IMG/VR virus record: IMGVR_UViG_3300027917_004314
Reading direction: 5' to 3' (one strand)
Length of the DNA: 64,000 nt
From: a virus
Lineage: Duplodnaviria; Caudoviricetes
The position numbers and the translations under genes are program-made. The notes under the pieces are model-generated. The model was not told the DNA's origin. It did no database searches and was given only the letters and a program-made list of their open reading frames with translations. Below are positions 29,070 through 64,000 of this stretch, one piece after another (positions within the stretch are counted from its first letter, which is position 1; every line of letters begins with the position of its first letter).

Positions 29070-29765
29070 ATGCTTCGAATTATACAAGCCGGAAATGCAC
29101 TCCCCTTCAGTTATCCAGTTGATAGTTCAAGTTCATTTCAACCCGGTCAGATAGCACAACTTAAGTTGGTAGGTCAAGACATTGTTGCCGGATTATCAGA
29201 TGGAACTGCTCCATTGGGAATTATCGACGATATCCGTACGACCGCATTTACTCAAACAGTAGTGGATGAGATTGTTGTTATACCTGGTGTTGATATCACT
29301 ACTGATGGGTATAACAATTTTTATAATGGAGCAGATTCTAAGCAAGAACTTAATAATGCTGGATTGATACAATCTAGTTTTGTTGCCGATTATGAAGGTT
29401 TAGTTCTTAATCCAACTAATGGTATTTTGACCCTTCCGGCTAACAGCTTGCTGAACTATGACAGTGATGGTGATAACTTAGAAGATAGTGTTAGAACTAT
29501 CGTTAACTATGTATATCAAGTACCTTCGCTGCCTGGCGATGATACAACAATTGGTAGTAATAGAATAACTGTTTGGTTTCAAAGAGGGATTTTTGCTACA
29601 GATCAGTTCGATTCGCTACAGCGATATCCATTAAATGCAACATTATTTGTAAGTTCAGAAGGAAAGTTAACTACAAGTCAGGCGACGGCGGACCATCCTG
29701 GTGTAGCTATAGTTACCGGTCCTCCAAGTGCAATAGAAGGTACGTTAGAATTTATGTGGTTATAA
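29070..29765 (+). CDS. Head decoration/cement-like protein (paralogue 1)
   Basis: Beta-rich; FQPGQIAQL..PLGIIDD..GSNRITVW..GIFATDQFD pattern typical of beta-tulip decoration proteins near capsid genes. Confidence 0.65.
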   Translation: MLRIIQAGNALPFSYPVDSSSSFQPGQIAQLKLVGQDIVAGLSDGTAPLGIIDDIRTTAFTQTVVDEIVVIPGVDITTDGYNNFYNGADSKQELNNAGLIQSSFVADYEGLVLNPTNGILTLPANSLLNYDSDGDNLEDSVRTIVNYVYQVPSLPGDDTTIGSNRITVWFQRGIFATDQFDSLQRYPLNATLFVSSEGKLTTSQATADHPGVAIVTGPPSAIEGTLEFMWL

Positions 29766-29775
29766 TGGAGGCGTA

Positions 29776-30141
29776 ATGACTTTTTCAAAAGAGGATAAGG
29801 CTGCGTGGCTCAATAGCGAGGTTATGCAAGAGCTTGAAAAACTTGGTGAGAGCGTCCTTAATGGGCCACCTCCCGAGGCTTTCGAGCCGCTAGAGAATGT
29901 TGCAGCTGCTGAAACATGGGAAGACGAAGACTTGGAAGAAAAAATAACTGAAGCCGTTAAAGAATTTGAGCAGCCTGTAGTTCCAATTGAGAAAGAGTTT
30001 GTTGTTGCGTATAACAAGCGTCTTCTTGCAAACATAGAAAAGATTGCGTATCATCTATCAGACAAAAAAAACATTACGGCTGCATATAGAGTAGAACAAT
30101 CATTAAGACAACTTAAAGCTTTGTTGCGGGAGGAAAATTAA
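29776..30141 (+). CDS. Small scaffold-like protein: WxxSEVMQE leader + helical hairpin
   Basis: GGAGG RBS; AAWLNSEVMQELEK resembles the start of 34046; ends right after the hairpin tag. Confidence 0.75.
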   Translation: MTFSKEDKAAWLNSEVMQELEKLGESVLNGPPPEAFEPLENVAAAETWEDEDLEEKITEAVKEFEQPVVPIEKEFVVAYNKRLLANIEKIAYHLSDKKNITAAYRVEQSLRQLKALLREEN

Positions 30142-35440: not shown

Positions 35441-35528
35441 ATTCTTAACCATTTCAACCAGTTAGTTAATTTACCAAATTATACGCTTTTTTAAGAATAC
35501 GCCATAAGTAGTTAATATTTATAAGAAT

Positions 35529-35538
35529 CTATCAATAT
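35529..35538 (+). promoter_or_regulatory. Putative phage promoter motif CTATCAATAT
   Basis: Intergenic, upstream of decoration protein and major capsid genes. Confidence 0.55.
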
Positions 35539-35617: not shown

Positions 35618-36271
35618 ATGGCTCTTTATATTTACCAGTCAGGAGTCCAACCACTAGGACAGTTTGACGCTCTAGATGGCTATCTCGACGGAACTTATGA
35701 CACCATCCTTGGTGGTGAAATTGGCACCGTTTTCGCAGCTGCTAGGACCGTTTCCGCCAGCGAAAAAGCCGCATACGACGTACTTGATGGTTATACCAAC
35801 GCAACTGATCAGTACCGCCCTGCGATCGCTAACAGTATTGATGCATCTACTACACGCCCACTATGGCTACTTGATGATGGTACAGCCGGATATGGCACTC
35901 TGTTTGGCCAGGTAATTGGTACTCCAGTCGGACTTTCCACCACTGGAACCAATCTCGGACCTCACACCGCTGCTGCAAGTGGCAAGGTCACTTGTTGGGA
36001 CAAGCCAGGTCTTTACGCAGTTTCTGTTGACGCAGTTGACACTTCTGCCGACGGTCTGGTACTCACCAACGTTAATTGTGACCCCGCTGCTGCGATTCAG
36101 CCACAGCATGATGGTACTCTGACCGTATCTACAGCTTCTACTGCTGTTGATGTCACAGTTGGTCGATTCATGGAATTTGAGACAAGCCCGTTCTTGGTAA
36201 CCACTCCACCTTCATTGGTCGGTGCTACCGAAGCGGCAGTAAGAGTTGTATTTAGCTACATGGTAGAGTAA
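35618..36271 (+). CDS. Head decoration/cement-like protein (paralogue 2)
   Basis: GGAGG RBS; directly upstream of MCP; ILGGEIG..LLDDG..SGKVTCW..PGLYAV parallels 29070. Confidence 0.7.
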   Translation: MALYIYQSGVQPLGQFDALDGYLDGTYDTILGGEIGTVFAAARTVSASEKAAYDVLDGYTNATDQYRPAIANSIDASTTRPLWLLDDGTAGYGTLFGQVIGTPVGLSTTGTNLGPHTAAASGKVTCWDKPGLYAVSVDAVDTSADGLVLTNVNCDPAAAIQPQHDGTLTVSTASTAVDVTVGRFMEFETSPFLVTTPPSLVGATEAAVRVVFSYMVE

Positions 36272-36367: not shown

Positions 36368-37399
36368 ATGTCGTTATTTAGTACATATGGAAAACAAGGC
36401 GAGCTGAATGCGAGTTCCGTTAGAGATGCTCTTGCGAACATTGTGAAGTACGCTAGCGTACTTGACGATTTGGCCCCTGCAAACCAGGGTCTAGCGCAAC
36501 AGCCATCCTATACGGATGATCAGCGTAACGAGCTTATTAAGCGCGCTTTGATGACGCAAGAAGGCAAGATTGCTCTTGGCCAGGCAATGGCCAATCCGAT
36601 CCGCAGAAACTTGGATTATCAAGGAGTGGGCCGGAGAGTTTTGGTTGTCGACCCGTTGCCCCAAGGTGCTCTTCCTGTATACGACCGCGATATCGATGTC
36701 GCAGCTACCGTTGTTTCTAGCAATGGTTCTGCTCCAGAGAGCCGCGTGTTCGGTGACAGGGTGACTGTACCTGAGTTTGAGGTTGTTTCTAATCCTACTG
36801 TGCGTATTGCTGAGGTAAGAAGGCGTCGTTTTAACGTGATCGACCGTGCTCAGCAGAAGGCAAGGCAAGAGATCCAGGCACAAGAAGATGCTAACATTTT
36901 CGCGTCCCTCGATTTCGCAGCCGATGCAACGCTTGGTGGAGAGAACACTGCCCAGGATATTGCTGATGCGGGACTTCTAAAGCGTGACCTTTCCGAGATT
37001 AAGGTTCAGGTAGACCGTTGGGACCTTGTAACTACTAAGTTCCTCATGAATATCATTGAATTTAATGACATTCTGAATTGGGCAACTGGTGGTGGCCAAG
37101 GATCTAATGGCGGCGAGGTTGATCCTGTTACGATGAGAGAGATCCTTCAGACTGGTCTATATGCCCACATCTGGGGTGCAGACATCATCGTTTCTAAGAT
37201 CGTCCCAGTCGGAACCGTTTTCGGAACCGCCGATCCAGAGTTCGTAGGTGTTATGCCTGTCCGTCAGGACATCGAGGTACTACCTGCCGATGAGCCCAAG
37301 CAGCTAAAGCTTGGTTGGGTTATCTCTGAGATCATCGGAATCGGCATCGTCAACCCACGCGGTTGCGCTGTTGGTCGTAAGTCTGTTGCTGTTGGCTAA
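36368..37399 (+). CDS. Major capsid protein (HK97 fold)
   Basis: Strong AGGAGG RBS; 343 aa; follows decoration gene; RRNLDYQG..DPLPQGALPVYD, FNVIDRAQ..IQAQED, GWVISEIIGIGIVNP pattern; strong terminator after. Confidence 0.88.
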   Translation: MSLFSTYGKQGELNASSVRDALANIVKYASVLDDLAPANQGLAQQPSYTDDQRNELIKRALMTQEGKIALGQAMANPIRRNLDYQGVGRRVLVVDPLPQGALPVYDRDIDVAATVVSSNGSAPESRVFGDRVTVPEFEVVSNPTVRIAEVRRRRFNVIDRAQQKARQEIQAQEDANIFASLDFAADATLGGENTAQDIADAGLLKRDLSEIKVQVDRWDLVTTKFLMNIIEFNDILNWATGGGQGSNGGEVDPVTMREILQTGLYAHIWGADIIVSKIVPVGTVFGTADPEFVGVMPVRQDIEVLPADEPKQLKLGWVISEIIGIGIVNPRGCAVGRKSVAVG

Positions 37400-38014: not shown

Positions 38015-38050
38015 TACATTCCCCCAAAAAAATGAAATATGGAGGAAAAG

Positions 38051-39295
38051 ATGAGTGGTTTTGCCGGAAGAAGTAGCTTCTTGACTGACGCAGACGGTGC
38101 GTTTATCACTAGTTTTCAAGATGAATCTAAAGATGCATTCACTCGCCTGAGAGTTTCAAACAATCATTTGCTTTTAACATCGCAACAGACTTTTGATTCT
38201 TTACCGTTAGTATGGGATACGGAGCTAACAGGTTCTGCTTCAACGTTGTTTTTGCCAGACGAATCAACTACATCGTTGATCGTAACCGGGGATTTAGGAG
38301 ACAAAGTAATCAGACAAACAAAGCGTTATTGGCTTTATCGTGCTGGGCAAGGGCACAATATTCATATGACGTTCGGAGATGGATATCAAGCAGCCGGTAT
38401 TAGAAAACGAGTTGGGTATTTTGATGGATATAATGGAATATTTTTAGAAATCACAGAGAATGATATAGCTGTGGTATTGCGTTCATATACATCTGGTATT
38501 GTTGAAGAACGGCGTATTACACAAAAAAACTGGAATTTTGATCATTTAGATGGTACCGGTAGGAGTGGCATCACGTTAGATTTAACAAGCACCCAAATCT
38601 TTCATATTGATTTTCAATGGCTTGGAGTTGGTAGGGTACGCACCGGTTTTGATATTGGTGGTAAAACATATTATATACACATATTTGAGAACGCTAACAG
38701 ATATCCCTCTGTATACATGAGTACAGCGACACTACCTTGCCGATATGAAATAGAGGCGGTTGATGATTGTCTGGGTGGAACATTAAATCACATATGTAGT
38801 TCCGTATTCAGAGAAGGTGGTGATGAAGAAGAGGGTATTCGTACGTCAGCTACTACTGGCTTTGCGGCAACGACAGCGACAACCACGCAACGCAGTGTAT
38901 TATCCCTTCGTTTAAGAAGTTCTCATATACGTGGATTTTTACAACCAATTAACTCGTTGATCAACAATCGCGGCACTGAGAGCGTTAGATGGGACGTGGT
39001 ACTTAATCCAACGCTTGATGGCACGCTTTCCTGGATTAACATAGGACAATCCGCACAGCAATCTATAACGCAGCTAAATTATACTGCTGGTAGTGGTCAT
39101 CGTATAGCATCTGGATACGTTAATGCAGCGGTGGGGGTAGTAACAAATAAGCAGGTAGCGAACTCGGATATAAACTCCATATTGGGTGTTGCGGCAGATA
39201 TAGGAGGAACATCTGACGTTTTGTCAATAATTGTAGAGTCTTCTACTGGCAGCCAAACAATTGATGCTATTTTATCGTTTTTAGAATTATTTTAA
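38051..39295 (+). CDS. Beta-rich virion protein (DAFxRLRVS type, lectin-like)
   Basis: GGAGG RBS before ATG 38051; DAFTRLRVSN, FQWLGVGRVR motifs; 2 DGY. Confidence 0.7.
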   Translation: MSGFAGRSSFLTDADGAFITSFQDESKDAFTRLRVSNNHLLLTSQQTFDSLPLVWDTELTGSASTLFLPDESTTSLIVTGDLGDKVIRQTKRYWLYRAGQGHNIHMTFGDGYQAAGIRKRVGYFDGYNGIFLEITENDIAVVLRSYTSGIVEERRITQKNWNFDHLDGTGRSGITLDLTSTQIFHIDFQWLGVGRVRTGFDIGGKTYYIHIFENANRYPSVYMSTATLPCRYEIEAVDDCLGGTLNHICSSVFREGGDEEEGIRTSATTGFAATTATTTQRSVLSLRLRSSHIRGFLQPINSLINNRGTESVRWDVVLNPTLDGTLSWINIGQSAQQSITQLNYTAGSGHRIASGYVNAAVGVVTNKQVANSDINSILGVAADIGGTSDVLSIIVESSTGSQTIDAILSFLELF

Positions 39296-39346: not shown

Positions 39347-39634
39347 ATGAGCAAATGGAATTATTTTGATGTTGTAACCGTTGACGGGTACGATTTTCCT
39401 GTTGTACCGCAAGCTAATTTTAGTTTTCTTTCTACTGCAATCAGCTTTCTAAACAGGAGTAGTTACGTCATAGAATATTCTTTTGATGGTACAACTTTAC
39501 ATGGGGATCTAAACCCTTCTGACAGTTCTAGTGGAGTAATGTGTGACAACCGTGTAGAAAGCAAAGTATGGTTTAGGGCAGTTGATGGGTATGGAGATGT
39601 AAGAGTCGAGGCTTGGGGGAACTCTGGTAGATAA
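39347..39634 (+). CDS. Small beta-sandwich virion protein
   Basis: AGGAG RBS; two DGY motifs in 95 aa. Confidence 0.7.
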   Translation: MSKWNYFDVVTVDGYDFPVVPQANFSFLSTAISFLNRSSYVIEYSFDGTTLHGDLNPSDSSSGVMCDNRVESKVWFRAVDGYGDVRVEAWGNSGR

Positions 39635-42195: not shown

Positions 42196-42699
42196 ATGCA
42201 CAGGGAATGCGGTGATTGCACGGTATGTTGTTATGTTGGTGGCGTACCAGAGCTTGGAAAGCCTGCACATAAAAAGTGCTGCTATGAGAACAAAGGATGT
42301 TCTATTTACAATAGTCGAGAACGCCCGTCAATTTGTAATAATTTTCAGTGCGCTTGGTTACGTGGTATAGGGTCAGAGAATGATAGGCCTGATATCAACG
42401 GCGTAATGTGTTCTGATAATTTTTTAAATGGTGGCCATTGGGTTTTTGTGATTGAATTGATTCCTGAGGCGGCAACTACTAGCGGGTTATCAATGGTAAA
42501 ACAGCTTGTAGAATGTTTTGATATTCCAGTAATAATTTCTAACTACGATTCTATACCCCCGAATGATACTGGTGACCGCGTAATAATTAAAGATTCACTA
42601 AAAACAAGATCTAAGAAATTAATGGGAGAATTGATTCAATACCTAGACGATGATAAAGTTATGGGTATTTATAAGTTAACAAATGGCAGTAACTTTTGA
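42196..42699 (+). CDS. CxxCxxCC (YkgJ-like) metal-cluster protein
   Basis: RECGDCTVCC..KCC..GCSIY..RPSICNNFQCAW. Confidence 0.75.
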   Translation: MHRECGDCTVCCYVGGVPELGKPAHKKCCYENKGCSIYNSRERPSICNNFQCAWLRGIGSENDRPDINGVMCSDNFLNGGHWVFVIELIPEAATTSGLSMVKQLVECFDIPVIISNYDSIPPNDTGDRVIIKDSLKTRSKKLMGELIQYLDDDKVMGIYKLTNGSNF

Positions 42700-48100: not shown

Positions 48101-48233
48101 AGCCAATATCCCATTGTTTGTAAGAGCCCGAATTAAAGGTAAGGTGCCATTCAAGACGACTTCTACGTTCACCACAATCGGTGCTTCTGTCGGCGCCGTT
48201 CTGAACCCAGATACTGTTGTAAATCTGCCGTAA
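45198..48233 (+). CDS. Large beta-rich virion structural protein
   Basis: GGAGG RBS; internal G..F.VG(D/E)..G..SGA repeats; 5 DGY. Confidence 0.7.
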   Translation: MAISDDWDFNFSDKVISHIDGYLKYDGGSGTAPVVGDMVIGNTSGAIGKVLQIDGGLPAGGLTLTNTVGLFQDDETLDILSYVDFYGVGNGGFAVGDTIVDQVSGSIDVKFIEYNIGTSEGGSTAGFGRMYGNNMSLFTHYSPLDISGGTSSVAIAYGIGEDKDGYLTADVNETLEVPGTPNTNNCIILHYENGTIAIPEDARISDGYDAEGFAQAVFGSTVIGSIRVIDSDTTAGVWDDGYELTIEDVVFYDNLVAGKVFSAGDVVKGDTSGAKGRVLSVITDSGTTGKLILANKSGTWDHTTPDNIQVLQADDTYLSYAEVANNTFTLYAADINIPNGVRDTQREDQGGIYGPGSLNIVRSANALYSYAMDLFDELAQLDDDPAFEGNVRDQLYTVLNNYVIPDLSFRFLEKGSFKDTGNNNIFTNIQTTGAIADIRDNAYFYNTTNPTPQPDMYVEQDGVVVRQDWLEGNLNILLKTKTSTDPKYIDPAVEALGQVIDGGAFTVHVRPYRRTYDSNEVTQIGGIAVVALGNAVDLNNTTGQYSVSFTSGVGTPFTVGEEATTTDGKRIVIVTSDTGASGDVTYVLKSDTNLVNTDVFTGVVSGAYATASTPTTLVAGYDEDIRVMVVQRRFTGGTTSSGPFVYGEWIQQLASGADGYFMEDDSGTIYIEESNGTFTGTDTLTGYISGATNTPTATAAYSTVPKDIGGGVGDKNYTAVVSADVTDADPQTVANVYEWWKFITRKEASNYQVKTAGGLYTAYTPGNIYRRLQSTFAEVRGASPFGVKAGALVIGAQGVFIQKETLDPNDIRSIQLTDNLGNVYDPPNLQALVVTNITSGVRVAVYRSTGVGNEDILRTEFAVGSVGTHNQSSDSTVLVKANTRSVSPLPSDIPDEGVLRVLDPSDTGNYLRFPYSSVDRTTNVFTLTAGTIGDVTGGVDLVEDDNVHVVLIEEESTGTSVSNTIQYVANIPLFVRARIKGKVPFKTTSTFTTIGASVGAVLNPDTVVNLP

Positions 48234-50815: not shown

Positions 50816-51138
50816 TGTCAGTGGCACTGGCCATAGCGACTAGAGGTATAATTTGTTTTTCAACTGTCGGGGCACCTGTCCAAGGCTTAGTATCTTGTGA
50901 TTCACCAGACATTCAAGATTTTATTGATTTAAGGCCAGACATTGCAAGCTCTGAAGAGCTTAGTCCAACAATATCAGATACAACGCCAGTTGTAGAGTCA
51001 ACAGGGCAGCGCATTACGGAGATTGTAGAGGGAGATAATTTAGTGCCGAGAATATCCAGCTCTTCAGACCTAACGCCAACTATAACCAGTGGTGAGGAAT
51101 TAATACCATCTGTAACCATTGTGGAGGATGATGATTAA
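50815..51138 (+). CDS. Small acidic Ser/Thr-rich protein
   Basis: TAATG overlaps; repeated (L/I)xP.I motifs. Confidence 0.6.
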   Translation: MSVALAIATRGIICFSTVGAPVQGLVSCDSPDIQDFIDLRPDIASSEELSPTISDTTPVVESTGQRITEIVEGDNLVPRISSSSDLTPTITSGEELIPSVTIVEDDD

Positions 51139-52295
51139 TGGCTGTTATTAAACTGCAAATAAGCGTAAGCCAGATTACAAACGTTATATCATTATTTGAT
51201 AAAATTCAAGTGCAGCGCTCTAAATTGGGTGATCCGTATACAGATGCAGAGTTTATTACTGCTGATGCCGCAACCGCTCCAACCATGACAGGCACACAGG
51301 TGGGTCCATTTGATTTTTTACAAGGCACAACTCTTGAAATTCAGGTTGATGGCGGAGACACTCAAACTGTTACTTTTACAGCCACAAACCCAATACCAAT
51401 CTCAACAGTTGTCTCGACATTTAATGGAACTGTTACCGGAGCCGTTGCCTCTGATGGATACGGAAGGTTGGTTATAACTGGAGCTAATACAGGAACTGAT
51501 GGAACACTTAGAATAGTTGGTGGCACATCTTTGTCTGTACTCGGTTTTACTACAGATCAGGAAGCTAATGGGCAGGACCCACATGTTACTCTGGTGGCTG
51601 GTACATCATCATATGAGTACGACGATTCCAGTGGAGCTACCACTTATTACTATAGAACACGATATTATAACTCTTCATCAGGCGTTTTCAGCGATTACTC
51701 TGCTTGGGCACTTGGAACCTCAGACGACCCAGACGGTGATCAGATAGGTGATGCGGCACGAATTTCATATACTGAGGATGAAATCCAAGGAATAAATATA
51801 TTGTTAAGTATGCTAAAAGCTAGGCTCAAGAACGACATTGAGGTGGAAACCACAGATGCTTTTGGAAATGTTACATACACACAATGTAGTGTGTTCACAG
51901 ACGACGAGTTAACATGGTTTTTAAGATGTAGCTTAAGTGAGTTCAATCAAACTCCACACTTTACAGATTTTACGTTTGATATGGAAGTTATTTATGATAG
52001 GTTTGCCTATATAATTGTAGAGGGCGCATTCATATTGGCTATGGCAGCACAGATGTTGATAGAGGCTGGGCGTGAATTTACAATCACCGATAACGGTATT
52101 ACAATGAACCCACCGCCGCTGTCGACTGTTCTAAATAATGAACTTAGCCAATTTGTCTCAAGACATACTGAAATGTTACATAAAATTAAGTGGAGCATTA
52201 AACCAACTCCATTGGGTTTTGGTGGGTTCAGAGTGTTGGCCGTGTCTCCTAATTTTATGAGATTAAGGCATTTGAGGCAAAGGAGAATTGTATGA
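51138..52295 (+). CDS. Putative head-tail adaptor/neck protein with N-terminal beta insertion
   Basis: C-terminal helical LKARLK..FTDDEL..LSEFNQTP..REFTITDNG pattern; position before head-closure gene. Confidence 0.55.
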   Translation: MAVIKLQISVSQITNVISLFDKIQVQRSKLGDPYTDAEFITADAATAPTMTGTQVGPFDFLQGTTLEIQVDGGDTQTVTFTATNPIPISTVVSTFNGTVTGAVASDGYGRLVITGANTGTDGTLRIVGGTSLSVLGFTTDQEANGQDPHVTLVAGTSSYEYDDSSGATTYYYRTRYYNSSSGVFSDYSAWALGTSDDPDGDQIGDAARISYTEDEIQGINILLSMLKARLKNDIEVETTDAFGNVTYTQCSVFTDDELTWFLRCSLSEFNQTPHFTDFTFDMEVIYDRFAYIIVEGAFILAMAAQMLIEAGREFTITDNGITMNPPPLSTVLNNELSQFVSRHTEMLHKIKWSIKPTPLGFGGFRVLAVSPNFMRLRHLRQRRIV

Positions 52296-52969: not shown

Positions 52970-54964
52970 TTGGCTCAATTTACAAATTTTTCTCCAGCAT
53001 CTGGTCAGACTGGCGTTGCTCGGACCGCAACAATTAGTTTCACTATTTTAGAGGGAGCAGCCGGCGCACAGATTAATACGCTGTCAACCTCTGTGGATGG
53101 GACATTTGCCATACAAAACGGCATTTTTGTGAATGGTTATAATGGCAGCATTTTTGCAGGCGTAGGAAAATACGTAGTTGGTATCTACCCAAAGAGCCCG
53201 GATTTTCTAGAAGCTGCCGCTCAAATTGATGCCTACATGGCAATTAGAGATTCCTACGATGTGTTGGATTCCTACAGTTATGCATTCTTTACCACTGGAT
53301 ATGTTGCAGACCCGGGCGATCCGGATCCAGCCCCAGAAGTAGACCCAAGAGCCTGCGATCTTACGAAACCGTTTTTCACGCCAACAGATCTTGGTTTGTC
53401 TGCCATTCTCGATGCAGGAGTTGGTACAGAAGTAGACGTAAGTTGGAAACCAGCGTATCCAAGTAACGAGAATAATTTAGTTTTCTATAATCTATATTAT
53501 TCTACGTTGAGAGAGCAAGTATTTGATGGATACCCAGATTTTCTAGTTGTAGATACAGAAGCTACCATTGGTGGTTTGCCACCAGGTGATCAACACTTTT
53601 TTGGTGTTAGGGCCACTGAGCTTAACCCATTAAATGTAACTATATCTGGTCTTAATCAAGCTGGGACAGATATGTATTACTATCCGGAGGCATTAGTAGA
53701 TGCATATTTTGATCAATATGCTATGTTCGTCCCAGCAGACTCGGTAAGTGGATTTCCTTTGTTTGGCACATTGGTTGTTAATGATGAATTAATCAGATAT
53801 GGTTCTAAACAGCTGTCGCCAGCTGGATTTAATGTTTCTGCCAATGGCAGAGGATATGCCGACACGGGCGCAGAAGCACATAGGGCTGGCGCACTTATCC
53901 GATTATACTGGGGTAAAGAAGATAAGAATACAATTACCGCTCAGGCAACGCCTACTTTCCAGAAGCCAAATTTAGCACTGACCTATGTTTTTGGTGATGG
54001 GTATGGGAATGATGGAAGAAGAGATGGGTACGACGGATATGCCAACACTGATGGTTACTTAAGATTGCGACAACAAGAGTTTGATAACATTACAACAGAT
54101 ACCACAAATAACGATGAACAGGGAGACTTCAACCGTTTTGATTATTGTGGTACATGGCGCACAATGTCGCCACAAAGTTTTATGCAAGGTCAATGTCGAG
54201 GTAGTTATTTTGGTGGCGCCCAAGTGCGTATCGATAATAATGGAGATAGGCATTTAGTAAAAGAATCTGATTTTCAGACGCATATGCTTCAACGAGAAGA
54301 GTTGTTGCTCGAACAAACCGGAGAGCCTTTTGTACTTATGCGCAGGATGTGGACAGGAGCCAAATGTCCATGCGTTATGTTACGGAGAGAACATCAGGAT
54401 GCTAGATGCCAAATATGTTTTGGCACAGGATTTGTACAGGGGTACATACAATTCTTCAATCCAAGAAGGGGTGATAGACGAATACTTGTTAGAATTGACC
54501 CCGCAACGGATGATGTAGATATTGTAGATCGCGGAGGTCTAGAACCCAAGTATGAGCCAAGCGGGTGGACATTACCGTTTCCTGCCATAAAAGACAGGGA
54601 CGTGTTAATTAGATTTAACGAAAACAATACAGAGGAATTTAGATATGAAATACTGGATGTAACCAGGCAGCGCGTTTTATTCTTGCAAAGCGGCGCACAA
54701 AAATTTAGAATGAAAAGATTTCCCAAAAGTGACATTATCTATCAATTTCCTGTAGTTAGAGATGTAAGCCCGACGCCTGGCACGCTGACTACCACATTAA
54801 CAGCTGCGCCTGGGATCGTGGCACATTCACATCAGATTGTTGTTTTACAAGGCACAGCTATTGCGACACTGAAGGCGGCCACACAAGAAAGCGAAGGACA
54901 CAATCACGTAATATATAATGGTATAGTGCAGTCAGTGCTTGGACACACACATACCATTCCATAA
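52970..54964 (+). CDS. Neck/head-closure-like protein with Ig/FN3 domains, Zn finger and His-rich tip
   Basis: GEPFVLMRR..CPC..CQICFGTGF; C-terminal HSH/HNH/HTH; DGY cluster; TTG start. Confidence 0.65.
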   Translation: MAQFTNFSPASGQTGVARTATISFTILEGAAGAQINTLSTSVDGTFAIQNGIFVNGYNGSIFAGVGKYVVGIYPKSPDFLEAAAQIDAYMAIRDSYDVLDSYSYAFFTTGYVADPGDPDPAPEVDPRACDLTKPFFTPTDLGLSAILDAGVGTEVDVSWKPAYPSNENNLVFYNLYYSTLREQVFDGYPDFLVVDTEATIGGLPPGDQHFFGVRATELNPLNVTISGLNQAGTDMYYYPEALVDAYFDQYAMFVPADSVSGFPLFGTLVVNDELIRYGSKQLSPAGFNVSANGRGYADTGAEAHRAGALIRLYWGKEDKNTITAQATPTFQKPNLALTYVFGDGYGNDGRRDGYDGYANTDGYLRLRQQEFDNITTDTTNNDEQGDFNRFDYCGTWRTMSPQSFMQGQCRGSYFGGAQVRIDNNGDRHLVKESDFQTHMLQREELLLEQTGEPFVLMRRMWTGAKCPCVMLRREHQDARCQICFGTGFVQGYIQFFNPRRGDRRILVRIDPATDDVDIVDRGGLEPKYEPSGWTLPFPAIKDRDVLIRFNENNTEEFRYEILDVTRQRVLFLQSGAQKFRMKRFPKSDIIYQFPVVRDVSPTPGTLTTTLTAAPGIVAHSHQIVVLQGTAIATLKAATQESEGHNHVIYNGIVQSVLGHTHTIP

Positions 54965-55825: not shown

Positions 55826-58800
55826 ATGACTGATAGCCAATATCCTGACAGCATTGACGATGACGTAGTTTTGCCAAGAGTAGATGATAATATAACAGAG
55901 ATTGGTGGCGAGGCTATTAACGGCTGTCGAAGTGCTATATTTAATATAGAAGAGACCTTGGGCACTAATCCACAAGGCACAGCGGCTGATGTAGCTACAA
56001 GATTGGCAGAGTCTTTAAATCCAGACGGCAGTATTAAAGCATCTGCACTATCTAGTGTTGGTTTGGTAACACTACCCATAGATAATGCTCAGGTTGGCAC
56101 CAACGCTGGCATTGAAGAATCAAAACTAGATTTAGACTATTCCACTGCTACATTAAGACAACTCATTGCATCTTTGGATGCATTTATAATGTCAATAAAC
56201 AACCGGCTGATTATTGATATAAGTAATCTTACGCAGCACGTTGCGCATCCATCAGCCTATGGTCGCCACAGGACCAGCGACATAGACGGATATACAGGAA
56301 AATATTCTTCATACAATGCCCAAGGAATGATCGATGACCTTGATACAAGGTTAATTAATCATGTCACTGACACCATTGACGCCCACGATGCCAGTGCAAT
56401 ATCATTTGTTGACACGGGTTTAACTATAAGTGCAGATGATGTGCAAGAAGCTCTTGAATTGTTAGATGAACTTCAAGCTACGCTTATGACAAAACATAGA
56501 GATGATATGCACAGTAACGGCATATTAAAGGAGCAAGAAGTTTATGTTGATGGCTATGTCCACTCAACTGCGATTCTTAGCGATCTGCCAATTTCAGCAG
56601 TTAGCCCTGGTGATACATCCATTACGTTTACTGGCGGCCCGATAGCTGCTTTAGCACAAGTCTCAAGGGGCGATAAAATCGAAGTCACAATTGGTGGACA
56701 GACATTCGTCAAGTATGTAGAGAGTGTGGTAACTATCAGCGATTCTGTTTTATTTTTTGGTGTTGCTCCATTTGGTGGTAGTGGCGCAACAGCTTCTATC
56801 TACTATGCATCTGAAGAAATTATTGCCCCCTCCGCTTTAATGATGGCAATTAAGAAAAAAGCAAGTGGAACGCAAGAAGCTACTGTGCAGATAATACACC
56901 CCAGTGCTCCTTATCTCTTAAGTAGTGGAATTGATACTGGACAACTTTCTCCAACCGTTAAAAATATCCAAGTTAAATGGCCAACTGGTTATGCGGAAAT
57001 TGACGCATACGGTGCTCTAAATACATATACTTCGTCTGCTGATCCAAGCACATGGACCACAGAGGTCTTAGCTCTTGCCCTTAACGAATCGTTTAGACCA
57101 GATGGCATTCTGGCTTCTTCTGTAGGATTGCCGCTTCTTGCTTTTACATATCGTGGAGAACTTGGGCTTGCATATGATGAACCCGATGGCTATCTAATTG
57201 CTGAAGCTCCAGGTTCTGGGAACAGCGCCTGGGCAGCACTAGGATTTACTGGTGTTGAAGAGGCCTATAGTCTTGGCCCAAGGAGATTCTACATTGACGG
57301 GTACGAGTTTACTGGCATTAGAACCATACTTAATGGGACTGGTAAAGTAGAAGGCGGCTCGCCAGAATTGATTGAAGATATTAATGTGGATTTAACTGAT
57401 CTTGGCATACCGAATCAGGGTGTTGTTAGGGTAACTGGCAGCTCAGGTGATGGCACTTACATATTCAATGCGACAACATCGTCAACCATCAGAATTGATG
57501 AATATCCGCTATTTTCAGTTGATCCATCGGTCGATGTGAAAATATACGCGGATCATTTTACGACAGGTGTTGCCACCAAAACCCTCTATGAGCTGTTTCT
57601 AGATGCATATGAAAATGGCCTGGCAGAATTAAGAGGTTCTGCAAGAGTGGAGTATAGTAACACTGCTGGTGCATCACCTGATTGGCCTGAAGATTGGTTT
57701 GATGTAGTCGATGTTTCTAGGACATTTGGTGCCAGTGAAAAGCGCATAGAATATAGAGAAGGAGCACTAACTTTAGGGGACAGATCTGGCGCTACAGGTG
57801 TCACAAACACGGGGCCTGCCGTATTGCTTCCAACCTCTAATGAAGAAGGATTTAGATTTAAATTGTATGATGGTAATGGAGTAGATTACTTAGAAATAGA
57901 AATAGCCGAAGGTGATTACGTAGGTGAAACCAACGTAAATGCGATTGATGTTGAGGTATTGTCAAGAGCAAGTGAAGAAAGATATGTACAAGTGGCGACG
58001 GTATTATATGATACTAATGATCTCAAATATTTAAGCGATAAACGTTTATTTGGGAGTGTTGGAAGAAGAGACGTCCGTGACGACTATACAAGAGATTATA
58101 TCACTTATCCAACCTCTCTGTTAAGAGGAAATGGCATTATTTATGGATTAGAGGTTTTTGATTCTTCGACTGATGTTGGCATTAAGGGTGGGCAAGTCGT
58201 AGTCGATGGTATTATATACGCAGTAGAAAGCACTGTCATCACGTGCCCAAAAAATTATTCTTTTACTACATATAATTTATTTGTTGATAATACAGGCAAA
58301 TTAAGGTTGTTAGAAGACAATCAGTACATTTATGGAGTTATTTCTACACCACCCATAGAAGAAATAGTTCAGAGCAAAGATAAGACGCTATTAGCTCAAG
58401 TCGTAGTAGATTTTAATAATAATGTGGATAGTATTTCTGATTACCGTAGGTTTGTTGGAGATGTAGATAATAATTTTGAACTTATATTAGAAAATAACGA
58501 TGGATATAATGTAACACATGGAACTTTTTCAACATTCGGATCTGTAATAAATTGGATTAATCTCCATGATTCTGCGGGGTTACCAATACCGAGATTAATA
58601 AGGTTGCGTGGTAATATTGATATAGATGTAAGTGACGGCACTACGCCCATTTCTTTTCCAGATGGTATTACATTTGCTGGTGATGCAACTAGTTGGGACG
58701 ATACCACTACTATGTCTACTATAACGTTGAGTGGTATTACGAGCAGCGGTGTTATACGGCCTGGTGATGGGTTTACTATGAAGAACATAAAGATCGATTT

Positions 58801-60829
58801 TACGTCGGGTGCAACTGTTAAGTATTTAGTGGGAAGTAGTATTACCGACCTTACCAACATGACTCTGGAAAACTGTGTTTTTGCTAACATAGCCGACGAA
58901 AACGGACTTATGGAAACAATTCGTGGAAAAACCATGTCGAATGTTAATATTGTAGGGTGCTCTTTTGAATATACCGAAAATTTTCAAGGCGGCTTTGCAA
59001 TTACATGTACAAGCACCGTAGATAATTTGTTTGTATCTAATTGTCTCTTTACTTGTACAGATATAGATGAGAGCATCGTTTTCATGTCTTTTAGTGGGAC
59101 AACAACCAGGATGACGGTACTAAACACTAAATTTGAGAGTTCGGCGCGCTTATCTACTTGGGCCATTGGTGCATTGTTCGGATCCATTGAACACTCATTA
59201 ATAGATAATTGTGTATTTGATATTACCTCTTATCCTGGTGCTATAGCGGATGGTTATTTTGGTATAGCAACTAGTGATATGACTAATACGACCATTTCAA
59301 ATTGTAGGTTTATCGATAGTGGTGCTGGTGATAAAAATATGTATGGTGTGCTCGGCCCAGGAGAAAATACAACAATTAGTGGCTGTTCTTTTGAGGATCA
59401 GCTAATAGGAGTGGTAGCTAGCAACGATGCGTACGGCATAATAATAAGTAATAATATCTTTGATGGAATTGGAACAGCAGCGATTAATGCCAATACACAC
59501 ATGGGCGGTATGATTATCGAAAAGAATTTTTTCAGGAAAACCGCGAAGAGAGAAGCAACAGATGTGTTTATTACCCTAAAAGATCCAGAACATGCGACAA
59601 TCAGGGACAATCTCTTTATAATGTCTGCATCAGATGGAAATTATGGCGAGATGATTCAAATTACTAATACAAGTAAGTCTACTGCTATTATAAACAACTA
59701 CTTGTTTAACACCGCCGCATCTGGACAGGGTTTTGAAGTTGGAATATATTTTGACGGTGATGCCGGAACACAAGGTGCTGACCACAAGTTGGACTGTATT
59801 CTGAACAACCACCTCTATAATTTTGGCGGCGGCAACGCTATTCCCATATCAATTACCAATGGTAATGAAACACTAATAAGTGGTAATAAAACCTTTGGTA
59901 CAACCACCGGTGGTATATATATGTTTGATTGTAAGTGGGCCACTATTGTTGATAATTCCCTTATGTGTAATATAGGTACAGCGCCAGTGTTAGAAATAGA
60001 TGGTAGCGGCGGCGGCGGCGTTGGTGAAGCATTCAATTTAATTAGCCAAAACACTTTTCATAATGCTCAGTCCGCCGGGCTGGATAATATTGTAGAAATA
60101 ACGGCAAATGGTGGAGAGAGGGTTATTTTCTCCAACAATATTGTAAGACAATATGTCTCCACTAGCTTCGCACTTGTTCTTATACAAACCAATTTTGTCG
60201 AATGCATAGGAAACTTCTTTTCATGTTATATTGCAAATAATACATATATGTTGAATGTTAGTGGTACATACGCTCTGGTTGCACTAAACAATCTAGCAGC
60301 TAACACGTTCCCATATTCTGGTGGTCGAATAAGTGTATCTGATGACACAAGTGTAGATTTTATGAATAAGGGTGGTACATACTACTCTGTAATACCTATG
60401 TCGCGAGCTTTCCCGGATACTGGTTCGTCTTGGGCAATTTATGCTGCTTCTAACCCACATAAGCTTGAACTAACAAATCCCAGTGGAACAAGTGAAGAAG
60501 CTTACATAGAATTCTCCAATTTGGATGTTCCAACGCATGCTAGGATAGTCCAATTAGACGTAAATGCACAAGTATCTGCAACAGACGATCTTGCAGTTAC
60601 ATGGTATAAAGATGATTGGGAGGGGGGTTCTAGTGCTGGCGATACTATCAGTCTTGCCACCAACCCAGATTCAACTGGTGCATATCTAACTTTTGATGTT
60701 GTGCCAAGTTCTGGTAATGATCCACAATATATGATGAATGACGAAGTACATCTAATAAAATTCCGTACAGACGATCCACTATCTGGGGCCGTATGGGTGG
60801 CGGGACTTAGAATTAAATACATATTGTAA
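55826..60829 (+). CDS. Large tailspike/baseplate-associated protein with parallel beta-helix
   Basis: GGAGG RBS; N-terminal YPDSID..NIEETLG anchor; long C-terminal Asn/Ile-rich beta-helix repeats (I.NC.F, I.NN.F); 6 DGY. Confidence 0.7.
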   Translation: MTDSQYPDSIDDDVVLPRVDDNITEIGGEAINGCRSAIFNIEETLGTNPQGTAADVATRLAESLNPDGSIKASALSSVGLVTLPIDNAQVGTNAGIEESKLDLDYSTATLRQLIASLDAFIMSINNRLIIDISNLTQHVAHPSAYGRHRTSDIDGYTGKYSSYNAQGMIDDLDTRLINHVTDTIDAHDASAISFVDTGLTISADDVQEALELLDELQATLMTKHRDDMHSNGILKEQEVYVDGYVHSTAILSDLPISAVSPGDTSITFTGGPIAALAQVSRGDKIEVTIGGQTFVKYVESVVTISDSVLFFGVAPFGGSGATASIYYASEEIIAPSALMMAIKKKASGTQEATVQIIHPSAPYLLSSGIDTGQLSPTVKNIQVKWPTGYAEIDAYGALNTYTSSADPSTWTTEVLALALNESFRPDGILASSVGLPLLAFTYRGELGLAYDEPDGYLIAEAPGSGNSAWAALGFTGVEEAYSLGPRRFYIDGYEFTGIRTILNGTGKVEGGSPELIEDINVDLTDLGIPNQGVVRVTGSSGDGTYIFNATTSSTIRIDEYPLFSVDPSVDVKIYADHFTTGVATKTLYELFLDAYENGLAELRGSARVEYSNTAGASPDWPEDWFDVVDVSRTFGASEKRIEYREGALTLGDRSGATGVTNTGPAVLLPTSNEEGFRFKLYDGNGVDYLEIEIAEGDYVGETNVNAIDVEVLSRASEERYVQVATVLYDTNDLKYLSDKRLFGSVGRRDVRDDYTRDYITYPTSLLRGNGIIYGLEVFDSSTDVGIKGGQVVVDGIIYAVESTVITCPKNYSFTTYNLFVDNTGKLRLLEDNQYIYGVISTPPIEEIVQSKDKTLLAQVVVDFNNNVDSISDYRRFVGDVDNNFELILENNDGYNVTHGTFSTFGSVINWINLHDSAGLPIPRLIRLRGNIDIDVSDGTTPISFPDGITFAGDATSWDDTTTMSTITLSGITSSGVIRPGDGFTMKNIKIDFTSGATVKYLVGSSITDLTNMTLENCVFANIADENGLMETIRGKTMSNVNIVGCSFEYTENFQGGFAITCTSTVDNLFVSNCLFTCTDIDESIVFMSFSGTTTRMTVLNTKFESSARLSTWAIGALFGSIEHSLIDNCVFDITSYPGAIADGYFGIATSDMTNTTISNCRFIDSGAGDKNMYGVLGPGENTTISGCSFEDQLIGVVASNDAYGIIISNNIFDGIGTAAINANTHMGGMIIEKNFFRKTAKREATDVFITLKDPEHATIRDNLFIMSASDGNYGEMIQITNTSKSTAIINNYLFNTAASGQGFEVGIYFDGDAGTQGADHKLDCILNNHLYNFGGGNAIPISITNGNETLISGNKTFGTTTGGIYMFDCKWATIVDNSLMCNIGTAPVLEIDGSGGGGVGEAFNLISQNTFHNAQSAGLDNIVEITANGGERVIFSNNIVRQYVSTSFALVLIQTNFVECIGNFFSCYIANNTYMLNVSGTYALVALNNLAANTFPYSGGRISVSDDTSVDFMNKGGTYYSVIPMSRAFPDTGSSWAIYAASNPHKLELTNPSGTSEEAYIEFSNLDVPTHARIVQLDVNAQVSATDDLAVTWYKDDWEGGSSAGDTISLATNPDSTGAYLTFDVVPSSGNDPQYMMNDEVHLIKFRTDDPLSGAVWVAGLRIKYIL

Positions 60830-60838
60830 GGAGAGAGA

Positions 60839-61288
60839 ATGACCAATAAGTCTGGTTTAGAATTAATAGAAGAGTTGGTGGAAAAGGTTTCGTTGCTCAA
60901 TAAACGGCTTGAAATCATCGAACAAAATACCAAGGAAATATTAAATAGGGCCAATGGGTTCCAAAACAAAACGGTAGTAGCGCAATTAAAACCGTCAACC
61001 AACACTGGCAAAAAACCAATCAGTGTTGTGGGTTCTAAAGTAATTGGAAAGATTAAAAATGAAGAGGGTAAGGCTATAAGCGGTGTACATATAACAATCA
61101 CGAATGAACATGGCCACGTAGTAAAAGAAACTAAAACAAATAGAGCCGGCGACTGGATGAGTTTTTTGCCACCTGGTAAATATGAAGCAAATTATTTTCT
61201 AGAAAACATGATAGACGCCAAAGTGGGTTTTATCGTTACGCAAGAGCAGAGGCTTATTAGGGTAGCCCAACCCAAAAAGGGAGGATAA
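60839..61288 (+). CDS. Coiled-coil + carboxypeptidase-regulatory-like domain protein
   Basis: GKIKNEEGKAISGVHITI..TNRAGDW..LPPGKY. Confidence 0.7.
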   Translation: MTNKSGLELIEELVEKVSLLNKRLEIIEQNTKEILNRANGFQNKTVVAQLKPSTNTGKKPISVVGSKVIGKIKNEEGKAISGVHITITNEHGHVVKETKTNRAGDWMSFLPPGKYEANYFLENMIDAKVGFIVTQEQRLIRVAQPKKGG

Positions 61289-61294
61289 CGCTTA

Positions 61295-62050
61295 ATGGTA
61301 ACGGATCACCGCGTTTACAGTGATTTATTCGACCTTGCAAATTTTGTCCGCCAGGTAGCGGTTTCGCAGGGAAAAAATTTACTTATTGACACTTTAAGGG
61401 AACACTTTAAAGCGGATAGATTCTACAGGTATACTACAGATGCGTTTGGTTTCCCGTTAACGCCAGACATGACAGATCTTCCTGCAGACATTCAAGAAGA
61501 CCGTACTACTAGGATATTTATTGGCGACGTATTCAGATACGATAAACGTTACTGGCCCGCTATAGTGGTTAGGTACGGATCTGGAAAATATAAGCCCGTG
61601 AGTTTCAACCAGAATCAAACTGTTAGATACAGAATGGATTTGGTCTTAGATGGATACGGTGGGCGTTCCTATGTTAATGTTCCAACACACCATGTAGTAG
61701 CTGGCGCATGGGAGCAAACATTTGAGATTTTAATAGCTTCTGAAGCCATACCGGATAGAGAAGAGCTTACTGATATCGTGTCTTCGTTCTTGATAGGTAA
61801 AGCGAGACAAGAGCTTTACGAAGCCGGTTTGTTTGTTAGAGGCGTCTCCATGAGTGGGGAACGTGAAGAAGAGTGGGGCAATGACAAAGTGTATTTGCAA
61901 AGTATCACCGTTGAAGCTTACTCTGAGTGGAGGCGAGAAATACCGATAGATAATCTGGTCGAAACTATAAATTTCTGTTTTAACTACGGTTTGTTTGGAT
62001 CAGGAGAATATTCGATAGATACTATTACAGTAGACGTTTCAGACACCTAG
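61295..62050 (+). CDS. Putative tail terminator/completion protein
   Basis: GGAGG RBS; located just before sheath; beta pattern WEQTFEILI..REELTD..ITVEAYSEW. Confidence 0.6.
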   Translation: MVTDHRVYSDLFDLANFVRQVAVSQGKNLLIDTLREHFKADRFYRYTTDAFGFPLTPDMTDLPADIQEDRTTRIFIGDVFRYDKRYWPAIVVRYGSGKYKPVSFNQNQTVRYRMDLVLDGYGGRSYVNVPTHHVVAGAWEQTFEILIASEAIPDREELTDIVSSFLIGKARQELYEAGLFVRGVSMSGEREEEWGNDKVYLQSITVEAYSEWRREIPIDNLVETINFCFNYGLFGSGEYSIDTITVDVSDT

Positions 62051-62544: not shown

Positions 62545-62570
62545 ATCAACACCTCATTGAATATTATGTT

Positions 62571-62580
62571 TTATTGATAG
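62571..62580 (-). promoter_or_regulatory. Putative phage promoter motif CTATCAATAA (minus strand)
   Basis: TTATTGATAG on +; 26 nt upstream of the minus-strand gene start. Confidence 0.6.
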
Positions 62581-62624
62581 AACTCAAGTATGCTATTATA
62601 AGGAAAAGGCTAATAATTTCAAAT

Positions 62625-62634
62625 CTATCAATAA
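62625..62634 (+). promoter_or_regulatory. Putative phage promoter motif CTATCAATAA
   Basis: Upstream of the tail sheath gene. Confidence 0.6.
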
Positions 62635-62683
62635 AAAATCATTGATCTGAAAGAATATACATATATTCTGGAGGATACTATAA

Positions 62684-64000
62684 ATGCCAAATATACCAGG
62701 TATTTCGGGATACATACAGCCAACTGTCGTTTCTCGTGTTCGTACTTTGCAAAGAGCTTTGTCCATTCCTGGTGGACTTCGTGTACTTAGCATCGTTGGA
62801 GAGGGCAGGCAAGAAGAGCTAATTATAGATGCTGCCGTAGGGGATGGAACTGATGGCTTTGACCCAACTTTCACCACCACTCCTACTGAAGGATATGGAA
62901 GGTTTTTTAAAACTTCAAATACTAACTTAGTAGAGAATCGCACTACGTTGTTGCTTAATGGCTCAGAATTGCGCGTGCTGGAAGCAGAAAATGACGGGAC
63001 TTCTTTTTCATCGCAATATGACGCCAGATTGGACCCAGCTACCGGAGAGATCGAGCTTCAAAGCGCCTCTATTGTAGACCAAGGAGGGTTGCTTTACGCG
63101 GTGGGATCTGGTAACACTGGGGACGGATATCTATCTACGCCAGTACTAACTGATACCAATGCACCACCAGAAATATGGACCATACGGTGTGTTAGTGTGC
63201 TAAGAGATAGCTATGGTGCAGCAATCAGAGGGCAGGCAACTTTTACAGCGAAAGGTAGTGTGAGTGGCTCTCTTGCAGATGAATATGGCCAAACATATAC
63301 CTGGAGAAGTGATGGCACCACAACTGATAACGGTATATTGTCATTTGCTATTTTTAACTTGTCTCCAAATACTCCATTTGAAGTCGGCGACAGGTTTACG
63401 ATAGAAGTAGACAGCAAGGTTCTGCAATCAAGGGATAGCCTTGAGGCAAGGTATATTGCAACAGCAGATCTAAATGATCCGACGACATATACCGAACCAA
63501 GTCAGCTATTTACAAAATATGGCACTCCTAGTACAGAAAACACTCTGTCGTTGGGTGCGCAAATGGCTTTTGAGAACGGGGCTACATCGATCTTGGCAAT
63601 GCAAGCCAAGCCCCCAATGCCAAGAAGGACATCTGAAATTGTTCTGCCAGCTTATAACAGCGTAACCGGCCGGGGTGGCGCAACAGGTAACTCTGACCCA
63701 GATGACCTTATTTTCCCAATAGAAACTCCGGGCAAACCAGATACGGATACTGTTGTACATTTCTTTATTCTGGGTACAGATGGCACAGAAACGCAGATTT
63801 TCCCAAACAAAGTAAACTTTTATAATCCAGATATCACTGACGCCTTCTCTCAATATGAGGAAACTGGTGTGAGTACAAATCTGATGGCTGAATTTATGGA
63901 TCCTTCACAAAGTGGCACTCCATTCAGCTACACAGTGGTAACGGATGACAGGATTGAACAAAGTGCCAGCGATGGATATGTCGCCCCTATTGGTGTGGGA
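62684..64000 (+). CDS. Tail sheath protein (partial, runs off window; not in ORF track)
   Basis: GGAGG RBS; open frame to the edge; N-terminus MPNIPGISGYIQPTVVSRV typical of sheath proteins, with beta insertion domains; 2 DGY. Confidence 0.75.
   Translation, partial: MPNIPGISGYIQPTVVSRVRTLQRALSIPGGLRVLSIVGEGRQEELIIDAAVGDGTDGFDPTFTTTPTEGYGRFFKTSNTNLVENRTTLLLNGSELRVLEAENDGTSFSSQYDARLDPATGEIELQSASIVDQGGLLYAVGSGNTGDGYLSTPVLTDTNAPPEIWTIRCVSVLRDSYGAAIRGQATFTAKGSVSGSLADEYGQTYTWRSDGTTTDNGILSFAIFNLSPNTPFEVGDRFTIEVDSKVLQSRDSLEARYIATADLNDPTTYTEPSQLFTKYGTPSTENTLSLGAQMAFENGATSILAMQAKPPMPRRTSEIVLPAYNSVTGRGGATGNSDPDDLIFPIETPGKPDTDTVVHFFILGTDGTETQIFPNKVNFYNPDITDAFSQYEETGVSTNLMAEFMDPSQSGTPFSYTVVTDDRIEQSASDGYVAPIGVG

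Follow-up and report, generated by a model that had tools for sequence, protein, structure and literature searches.

Why does a phage write the same three residues, Asp-Gly-Tyr (DGY), again and again into proteins that would form the outside of its particle? This question is raised by a 64,000-nt stretch of tailed-phage DNA (Duplodnaviria; Caudoviricetes), which comprises bases 64001–128000 of the 161,010-bp IMG/VR virus record IMGVR_UViG_3300027917_004314 and is called here the window. CheckV estimates the record to be ~40% complete, and a 460,921-bp contig carries the same proteins. A preliminary description of the window had counted 33 DGY by hand in 12 proteins (~6950 amino acids, aa) against a roughly guessed 2–3, and had read them as sites for modification of, or docking to, exposed surfaces. 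We think it very likely that DGY genuinely tags the outer virion proteins and is maintained by selection. The counts given below support that its enrichment is confined to proteins placed as outer virion parts by homology or gene order. The best single mechanism that we can offer, DGY as the acceptor sequon of a phage glycosylation system, is circumstantial, and we give it somewhat less than an even chance.

DGY counts in the window and along the record

The motif was counted in frame, one open reading frame (ORF) after another, along the whole + strand of the window. From position 29070 to the window end, 12 proteins (6,949 aa) contain 33 DGY, in agreement with the manual count protein for protein. 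None occurs in the + strand ORFs before 29070 (9,484 aa; 1.2 expected), among them the large terminase (ORF 4866), the portal (ORF 6729) and ORF 23802 with its head-protease-like segment. ORFs 30142, 32889 and 34046 and the major capsid protein (MCP; ORF 36368) are also free of it, in agreement with the zero reported earlier for terminase, portal, polyprotein, scaffold, ejection proteins and MCP. The late ORFs add up to 10,898 aa, with 7.1% Asp, 9.0% Gly and 3.7% Tyr. The composition of each protein predicts 2.77 DGY over all of them (close to the earlier guess), compared with the 33 observed, and the Poisson p of 3e-24 is still significant after correction for 8000 tripeptides. Shuffling within proteins (n = 2000) gave a mean of 2.76 DGY, with a standard deviation of 1.64 and a maximum of 10, and a first-order dipeptide expectation (93 DG × 53 GY / 977 G) gives ~5. 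Thus, the enrichment persists under both composition-matched and dipeptide expectations, the exact statistics that the preliminary description had proposed as a check. DGY ranks first in enrichment among all 8000 tripeptides in the late ORFs of the window; the runner-up is DAY (13 vs 2.2 expected), mostly from a tandem repeat in the protein encoded at 48263. Asp precedes 33 of the 53 GY, and Tyr follows 33 of the 93 DG.

The selection acts on the protein, because the codons vary and the DNA pattern is missing from the other frames. All 33 occurrences of the degenerate sequence GAYGGNTAY on the + strand are in frame, the − strand has a single one and the other frames have none, and the codons within the motif are as mixed as in general usage, as the preliminary description had remarked. 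A DNA-level motif, such as a restriction, methylation or regulatory site, is ruled out by the same observations. The 12 proteins have no BLASTP similarity to each other, so paralogy does not explain the count. They are listed here together with the MCP as a DGY-free contrast.

29070..29765, + strand: 231-aa head-module protein ('decoration 1'); DGY at aa 79 (nt 29304)
35618..36271, + strand: 217-aa protein just upstream of the MCP; DGY at aa 20 and 57 (nt 35675 and 35786)
36368..37399, + strand: MCP, 343 aa, without DGY; 54–56% identical to Bacillus phage G gp27
38039..39295, + strand: 418-aa lectin-fold virion protein (phrog_1645); DGY at aa 114 and 129 (nt 38378 and 38423)
39347..39634, + strand: 95-aa protein; DGY at aa 13 and 80 (nt 39383 and 39584)
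42683..44848, + strand: 721-aa protein with a weak Big_1 (Ig-like) match; DGY at aa 465, 545 and 579
45198..48233, + strand: 1011-aa protein; DGY at aa 20, 164, 206, 240 and 658
48263..50815, + strand: 850-aa protein; DGY at aa 90, 184 and 756
51138..52295, + strand: 385-aa protein; DGY at aa 106
52970..54964, + strand: 664-aa neck-region protein; DGY at aa 186, 343, 352, 355 and 361
55826..60829, + strand: 1667-aa protein with a faint beta-helix signal; DGY at aa 154, 242, 454, 491, 892 and 1142
61295..62050, + strand: 251-aa protein just upstream of the sheath; DGY at aa 119
62684..64000, + strand, with 1,227 nt more past the window end: tail sheath, 847 aa; DGY at aa 147 and 430 (nt 63122 and 63971)

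The identity of the MCP to gp27 indicates that the phage belongs to the phage-G-like clade of huge phages. The gene for baseplate protein J lies past the window end. The 850-aa protein has eight DAY, five of them (aa 485–711) in a 339-nt (113-aa) tandem repeat of 2.4 copies at window positions 49662–50479. Its unit contains two EIDAYLS..HG..WEG(S/A)G sub-repeats, and the repeat supplies five of the 13 DAY of the window.

Over the whole 161,010-bp record the number of DGY rises to 86, distributed among the functional groups as follows.

Decoration, neck, sheath, baseplate and fibres: 52 observed, 4.1 expected
Fibre cluster at 21–29 kb: 30 observed, 1.1 expected
Packaging, head-internal proteins and MCP (11,741 aa): 0 observed, 1.4 expected
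Tube, chaperones and tape measure: 0 observed, 0.5 expected
Non-virion proteins: 4 observed, 2.35 expected

The external modules are therefore enriched 12.7-fold, to 3.3 DGY per 1000 aa, and the internal and non-virion proteins stay at background. The earlier claim that the motif is restricted to external proteins holds for protein families and, as described below, for the domains of the sheath. It does not hold in the sense of depletion, since the internal zero (vs ~1.9 expected) is background, yet far under the external rate. Neither is there any sign of sequon avoidance in non-target proteins, the rest of the genome being at 1.5–1.7 times expectation.

Among the outer proteins encoded beyond the window, the baseplate and fibre genes at 149–160 kb include a 2270-aa wedge protein with 10 DGY, a 957-aa protein with four and a 537-aa protein with three. 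A 739-aa fibre protein (genome 21213–23432; L002:3214–5433) contains 15, several of them within tandem units of ~56 aa (LFYMDNYG...QITSDGYLD). It is followed downstream by three ~350-aa paralogues that all begin with M(K/R)LQP(F/L)QI(N/S)DGYS. This 21–29 kb fibre cluster is separate from the main tail module and adjoins gyrB and a class-V aminotransferase gene. A 300-aa protein encoded among the replication genes (genome 38027–38929; L003:2028–2930) has a chitobiase/hexosaminidase C-terminal (CHB_HEX_C_1) domain and two DGY. Both are kept in the relative G001 described below, so it may be an unrecognised virion protein.

The tail sheath offers the same distinction within a single protein. Its C-terminal residues 755–847 (~90 residues) superpose on solved sheath C-domains with Z 8–10. 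In solved sheaths, such as T4 gp18 and that of pyocin, the conserved C-terminal domain forms the inner layer around the tube. All 18 sheath orthologues carry DGY (42 vs 3.0 expected), in eight columns that all fall within residues 57–430, with none in 440–847. The absence of the motif from the inner domain supports its external location also at domain level. A search of PDB sequences with the sheath profile gave no match.

A short motif that recurs in many unrelated virion proteins of one phage calls to mind the prohead-protease motifs of T4 (gp21) and phiKZ-type phages, by which internal head proteins are marked and cut. Unlike these motifs, DGY is missing from the entire head-internal set (11,741 aa) and is kept in outer proteins that look mature. 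A prohead-protease cleavage motif was rejected on account of the zero in the packaging, head-internal and MCP set.

Conservation, turnover and local structure of the motif

The enrichment extends to the relatives of this phage. In 80 loci linked to an MCP 74–95% identical to that of the window there are 412 DGY against 46.6 expected. The 19 sheath loci hold 84 against 10, and each of four fibre loci has 13–37 against 1–2. In large relatives the ratio of GAYGGNTAY on the coding strand to the other strand is 102:8, 69:1, 130:8 and 81:18. DGY stands at 8.0 times expectation in the proteins of the relatives. When every alignment column is counted only once, which removes phylogenetic double counting, there are 258 distinct DGY sites vs 37 expected, and DGY is again the top tripeptide, ahead of the collagen-like PTG and GPT. 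In the same proteins its five permutations are not enriched (0.4–1.6 times expectation by occurrences, 0.65–1.4 times by distinct sites), and neither are the near-variants NGY (0.6–0.7 times), DGF (1.0–1.3 times) and DGW. DAY is mildly raised, 1.2 times by occurrences and 1.9 times by distinct sites.

There is next to no chance, in our judgement, that these figures are an artefact of composition, repeats, paralogy or phylogenetic sampling. Some sites do lie in tandem repeats (the fibre repeats at genome 21213–23432 and the array in the protein at 52970) and the relatives are not independent of each other. However, the shuffles reached at most 10 DGY vs the 33 observed, the 12 proteins of the window are mutually dissimilar, the permuted tripeptides are flat and the excess survives the counting of each column once. 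Inflation by paralogy or repeats was ruled out by BLASTP for the window and by the distinct-column count for the clade.

The enrichment is not general to phage tails, as judged from ~100 unrelated phage loci, but clade-wide. Eighty IMG/VR loci around lectin-fold homologues of other phages contain 74 DGY vs 53.8 expected, and 17 of these 74 stem from two clade members. The virus Rctr197k has one (1.2 expected), and loci that share only the fibre repeat, as distant homologues, have 0–3 each. Within the clade the families are bimodal, either rich in DGY or free of it. The MCP has none in 80 orthologues (3.0 expected), two tube paralogues none in 30 orthologues and the family of ORF 34046 none in 49 members.

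A convergent origin of the motif in the L009 lineage was considered and ruled out, because the MCP of its closest large relative, G006, is 78% identical, which places it in the same clade. The MCP gene of G006 (G006:C1:103152–105346) matches that of the window in two pieces separated by ~1.1 kb, the upstream one containing a TGA, which points to an intron, an intein or some other insertion in this gene. The same genome has nine identical 9-mers GATGGGTAC at G006:C1:348532–361469, on the + strand, irregularly spaced and against the coding trend of the genome, and eleven GACGGTTAC at 325.9–327.1 kb. Rather than independent DGY sites, they are probably a repeat at DNA level and a repetitive gene.

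How individual sites evolve was followed in G001, a complete 441,904-bp relative that is collinear with the record (16 orthologous pairs, 53% mean identity). Of 42 DGY, 22 (52%) stay DGY in the G001 orthologues, whereas retention is 18% for all tripeptides, 21% for other DGx and 19% for xGY (Fisher p 6e-7 and 9e-4). At the same time, 20 sites are found only in the present phage and 15 only in G001, and within families many DGY occur in few members where the others show unrelated tripeptides. The flanking positions carry ≤0.25 bit each, with a faint alternating hydrophobic pattern, and tandem arrays of the DGYDGYDGY type are present. In combining purifying selection with turnover of sites, arrays and a lack of flanking context, DGY behaves as short linear motifs do that are read in trans. 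The modification sequon proposed in the preliminary description is thus supported in part, by enrichment, turnover and arrays such as a sequon would show.

The proteins of the window differ in how firmly they hold their sites. The 217-aa protein at 35618 sits where the gene order of phage G has the capsid-decoration protein gp26, with no sequence similarity to gp26 detected. Its family has 100 DGY in 77 orthologues, 76 of which carry the motif, and one site is DGY in 75 of the 77. Both of its DGY are kept in G001. The 251-aa protein has exactly one DGY in 13 of 13 orthologues, again kept in G001, and both sites of the 95-aa protein are kept in G001 and in the relative L007 (67% identity). In the neck-region protein the dense array at aa 343, 352, 355 and 361, DGYGNDGRRDGYDGYANTDGY, is kept at all four sites in G001, and the relatives G003 and G004 have equivalent arrays with 3–6-aa spacing. 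Turnover is more visible elsewhere. In the 39 orthologues of the 231-aa protein the column of aa 79 is DGY in nine, DAY in three and GPN or GPG in 22, with DAY in G001. The single site of the 385-aa protein is NSH in G001, and the 1667-aa protein keeps one of its six sites in G001, which adds two of its own. The 721-aa and 1011-aa proteins have no orthologue in G001, and the latter has no Pfam or PHROG family match. For the 149-aa protein encoded between the 1667-aa and 251-aa proteins (window 60839–61288), precomputed Pfam hits of an identical Logan contig indicate a CarboxypepD_reg (Ig-like beta-sandwich) domain; its seven orthologues have 0 DGY.

The local structure of the motif was considered in two AlphaFold2 models. 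That of the 418-aa protein, which matches phrog_1645 with a PHROG E of 3e-86, is all-beta with a predicted local distance difference test score (pLDDT) of 89.5 and matches the concanavalin-A-like lectin/glucanase jelly roll and phage receptor-binding domains. In this model DGY110 lies in coil directly after a strand and DGY125 in a hairpin turn. Outside the clade neither DGY is kept in this family: DAY and DDY take their places in the closest homologue, and unrelated residues do so in most. A scan of viral contigs with the lectin-fold protein as single query gave no result. The sheath model is poor overall (pLDDT 59), with only the C-terminal domain and one beta-barrel placed; DGY147 stands at a strand start and DGY430 inside a strand. 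In terms of secondary structure, a clear hairpin turn is found at only one of the four modelled sites.

Asp-Gly is a classic type I' turn, and DGY might be purely structural, a tight Asp-Gly turn with a strand-initiating Tyr that would stabilise beta-rich extracellular proteins. The two lectin-fold sites, the weak alternating hydrophobic flanks and the mild excess of DAY by distinct sites (1.9-fold) agree with such a role. We nevertheless consider it unlikely, since related turn sequences such as NGY and DGF should then be used as well, and these, DGW and all permutations are flat. Moreover, the beta-rich tail and fibre proteins of the ~100 unrelated phage loci are not enriched, nor are distant homologues of the very same fibre repeat and lectin fold, and the beta-rich tube paralogues have none in 30 orthologues. 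The 3-aa spacing of DGYDGYDGY is incompatible with hairpins, and one sheath site lies inside a strand.

Glycan genes beyond the fibres as a candidate writer

If DGY is read in trans, the neighbouring genes may tell by what. The record ends just after the last complete fibre gene, inside an ORF (genome 160318–161010; L006:16319–17011), and in collinear relatives a glycosyltransferase (GT) cluster starts where it stops. The record bears the IMG/VR label 'provirus', so trimming may have cut a larger phage contig, that of 460,921 bp. A sibling contig of 40 kb, matched by identity, stops short of the record end. In G001 the cluster is 18 kb long, spans 294.6–313.2 kb, begins ~350 nt after the last ORF of the fibre module on the same strand, and encodes the following proteins, of which the GT-B enzyme next to the fibre genes lies at 310902–313166.

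A 754-aa protein with two GT-B domains
A 1129-aa GT protein
Three to four GT2 enzymes and a GT47-like enzyme
Two methyltransferases
An RmlA-like nucleotidyltransferase, a 4,6-dehydratase and an epimerase
FdtA and a DegT-type aminotransferase

By a crude hydropathy scan the cluster encodes no polytopic membrane protein, for which reason direct transfer in the cytoplasm fits better than export on a lipid carrier. The gene directly after it (G001 292333–293802; L186:12333–13802) belongs to the tubulin/FtsZ family (PhuZ-like). All 11 larger relatives (G001–G011), even divergent ones with a sheath only 44% identical, have a cluster for soluble GT and deoxythymidine diphosphate (dTDP)-sugar enzymes on the same strand as the tail and fibre genes and downstream of them. 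The cluster adjoins these genes in the five genomes whose DGY were mapped, and in G003, G004 and G006 it starts ~1–4 kb past the last DGY-dense gene. Judging by this synteny, the present phage would carry its own glycan cluster just beyond the record end.

These elements can be put together in one mechanism. DGY would be a self-contained three-residue tag, placed and kept by selection on outward-facing virion proteins: the capsid-decoration proteins, the lectin-fold protein, the neck, the peripheral sheath domains, the baseplate wedges and the fibres. It would serve as the acceptor sequon of a phage-encoded cytoplasmic glycosylation system, in which one and the same cluster makes dTDP-activated amino and deoxy sugars and provides the soluble glycosyltransferases that use them. 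The glycan would be attached to the tyrosine hydroxyl of folded late proteins, which would give the particle a coat of sugar. That the cluster acts on virion proteins, with DGY as its recognised motif and Tyr as the modified residue, is what we infer from all of the above.

Other chemistry at the same residues seems to us quite improbable: phosphorylation, sulfation or nucleotidylation of Tyr, or isoaspartate formation at Asp-Gly as an ageing timer or trigger. Several enzymes that modify Tyr typically have an acidic residue close to their target, Asp-Gly isomerises more readily than any other dipeptide, and one clear protein kinase is encoded by G001. But that kinase is the only clear one among five large genomes, and no sulfotransferase reaches threshold in any of the five, so the phages have no conserved writer of this kind. 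An effect of Asp-Gly alone is contradicted by the lack of enrichment of DGx other than DGY. It is this gene content, with GT in 11 of 11 relatives, that makes glycosylation preferable to phosphorylation.

Several observations, on the other hand, weigh against glycosylation of DGY. The MCP is presumably exposed too, yet it has no DGY. No GT2 or GT1 domain is found in the 161 kb of this phage (~40% of its genome), and the link to the cluster is one of synteny in relatives; the search for glycosyltransferases suggested in the preliminary description thus gave none in the phage's own record and clusters in its relatives. In the literature we found no precedent for a soluble GT, bacterial or phage-encoded, that O-glycosylates Tyr at a DGY sequon, nor any description of a DGY motif in phages. 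Many huge phages have glycan clusters, and these could act in the modification of DNA or of the host surface. The four modelled DGY, at strand ends, in a hairpin turn and within a strand, are equally compatible with a purely structural role, and DGY shows no preference for gap-rich or variable columns (local gap fraction 0.30 vs 0.39, not significant). All clade genomes examined show both motif and cluster, and phage G is effectively a single, weak negative control. In this nearest cultured relative (MCP 56% identical) the GT hits are sub-threshold and far from the tail genes, and the overall excess of DGY is weak (36 vs 21 expected), yet seven giant proteins still have 14 DGY vs 2.2. The seven, of 460–2010 aa, are encoded consecutively (JN638751.1 316783–347675; L228–L230), and the rest of that genome is near background.

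One further point against a modification sequon is the site that is DGY in 75 of 77 orthologues of the decoration-position family, which fits a fixed interface better than a movable sequon. DGY might instead be a non-covalent recognition or docking motif, read by a decoration or 'hair' protein or by a late assembly factor. It might also form ligand-binding micro-sites, in which the Asp carboxylate and the Tyr ring would weakly bind host glycans, metal ions or particles. The statistics fit this explanation as well as they fit a sequon (no context, bimodal families, selection with turnover), and tandem arrays would suit multivalent binding. We regard it as a serious alternative, although a rather unlikely one. 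No candidate reader has been identified, the motif ranges from head decoration to fibre tips, unlike a position-specific partner, and the conserved glycan cluster after the fibre genes would be left unexplained.

Related systems and what the motif would mean

The closest functional analogue of the proposed glycosylation is that of mycobacteriophages, whose virions, as Freeman et al. reportedly described in 2023 in Cell Host Microbe, are glycosylated by phage-encoded glycosyltransferases. GT and methyltransferase genes beside late structural genes are common to both, here as seen in the relatives, and so would be the cytoplasmic modification of virion proteins and the resulting glycan coat, suggested in our case by the genes. 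The O-glycans of mycobacteriophages are carried by C-terminal tails, rich in Ser and Thr, of the capsid and tail-tube subunits, and we know of no tripeptide sequon there. In contrast, MCP (0 of 80) and tube (0 of 30) are free of DGY in the present clade, and the motif is Tyr-based and spread over at least 12 outer proteins.

Formal analogues are found in the three-residue sequons Asn-X-Ser/Thr, including the cytoplasmic NGT/HMW1C type, and D-(S/T)-(A/I/L/V/M/T) of Bacteroidota. As with DGY, they are minimal, context-free tripeptides on many unrelated proteins, with sites that are gained and lost, and the Bacteroidota motif likewise begins with Asp. They differ in that the proposed acceptor here is Tyr and not Asn, Ser or Thr. 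The Bacteroidota system is moreover periplasmic and works via a lipid-linked glycan, whereas the phage cluster lacks polytopic membrane proteins in the crude scan.

Tyr is an established O-glycan acceptor in the S-layers of Bacillales and Clostridia, such as those of Paenibacillus alvei and Thermoanaerobacter, and S-layer glycans use dTDP-3-amino-3,6-dideoxy sugars made via FdtA and QdtB/DegT-type enzymes (PMC2943079). Enzymes of the FdtA and DegT types are present in the cluster of the relatives. Unlike what is proposed for the phage cluster, the S-layer glycan is built on a lipid carrier and moved to the outside of the membrane by an oligosaccharyltransferase. S-layer proteins are also cellular and not viral, and no DGY consensus is stated in the review (PMC2943079). 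The multi-omics paper on phage G reports no virion glycosylation. Being cultured, this phage is a possible experimental handle on the motif through its giant DGY proteins.

Should glycosylation of DGY be confirmed, bacteriophages would for the first time be shown to have virion glycosylation coded by a sequon, and a soluble Tyr-O-glycosylation system to have a defined acceptor motif. For glyco-engineering, too, a Tyr sequon of three residues together with its soluble transferase would be a useful tool. If DGY is an acceptor or recognition tag, it would provide a simple sequence rule to predict the outward-facing proteins of uncultured huge phages. It would then also point to a surface chemistry that extends over the entire virion in a globally distributed phage clade, most probably a coat of glycans. 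That the particles of phage-G-like huge phages are coated with a glycan made by the phage and bound to DGY tyrosines is in our view rather less likely than not; if it is true, the sites would come and go as in the glycan shields known from animal viruses. A glycan coat might influence how hosts are recognised, the stability of the particle, adhesion in sediments or the evasion of host surface defences.

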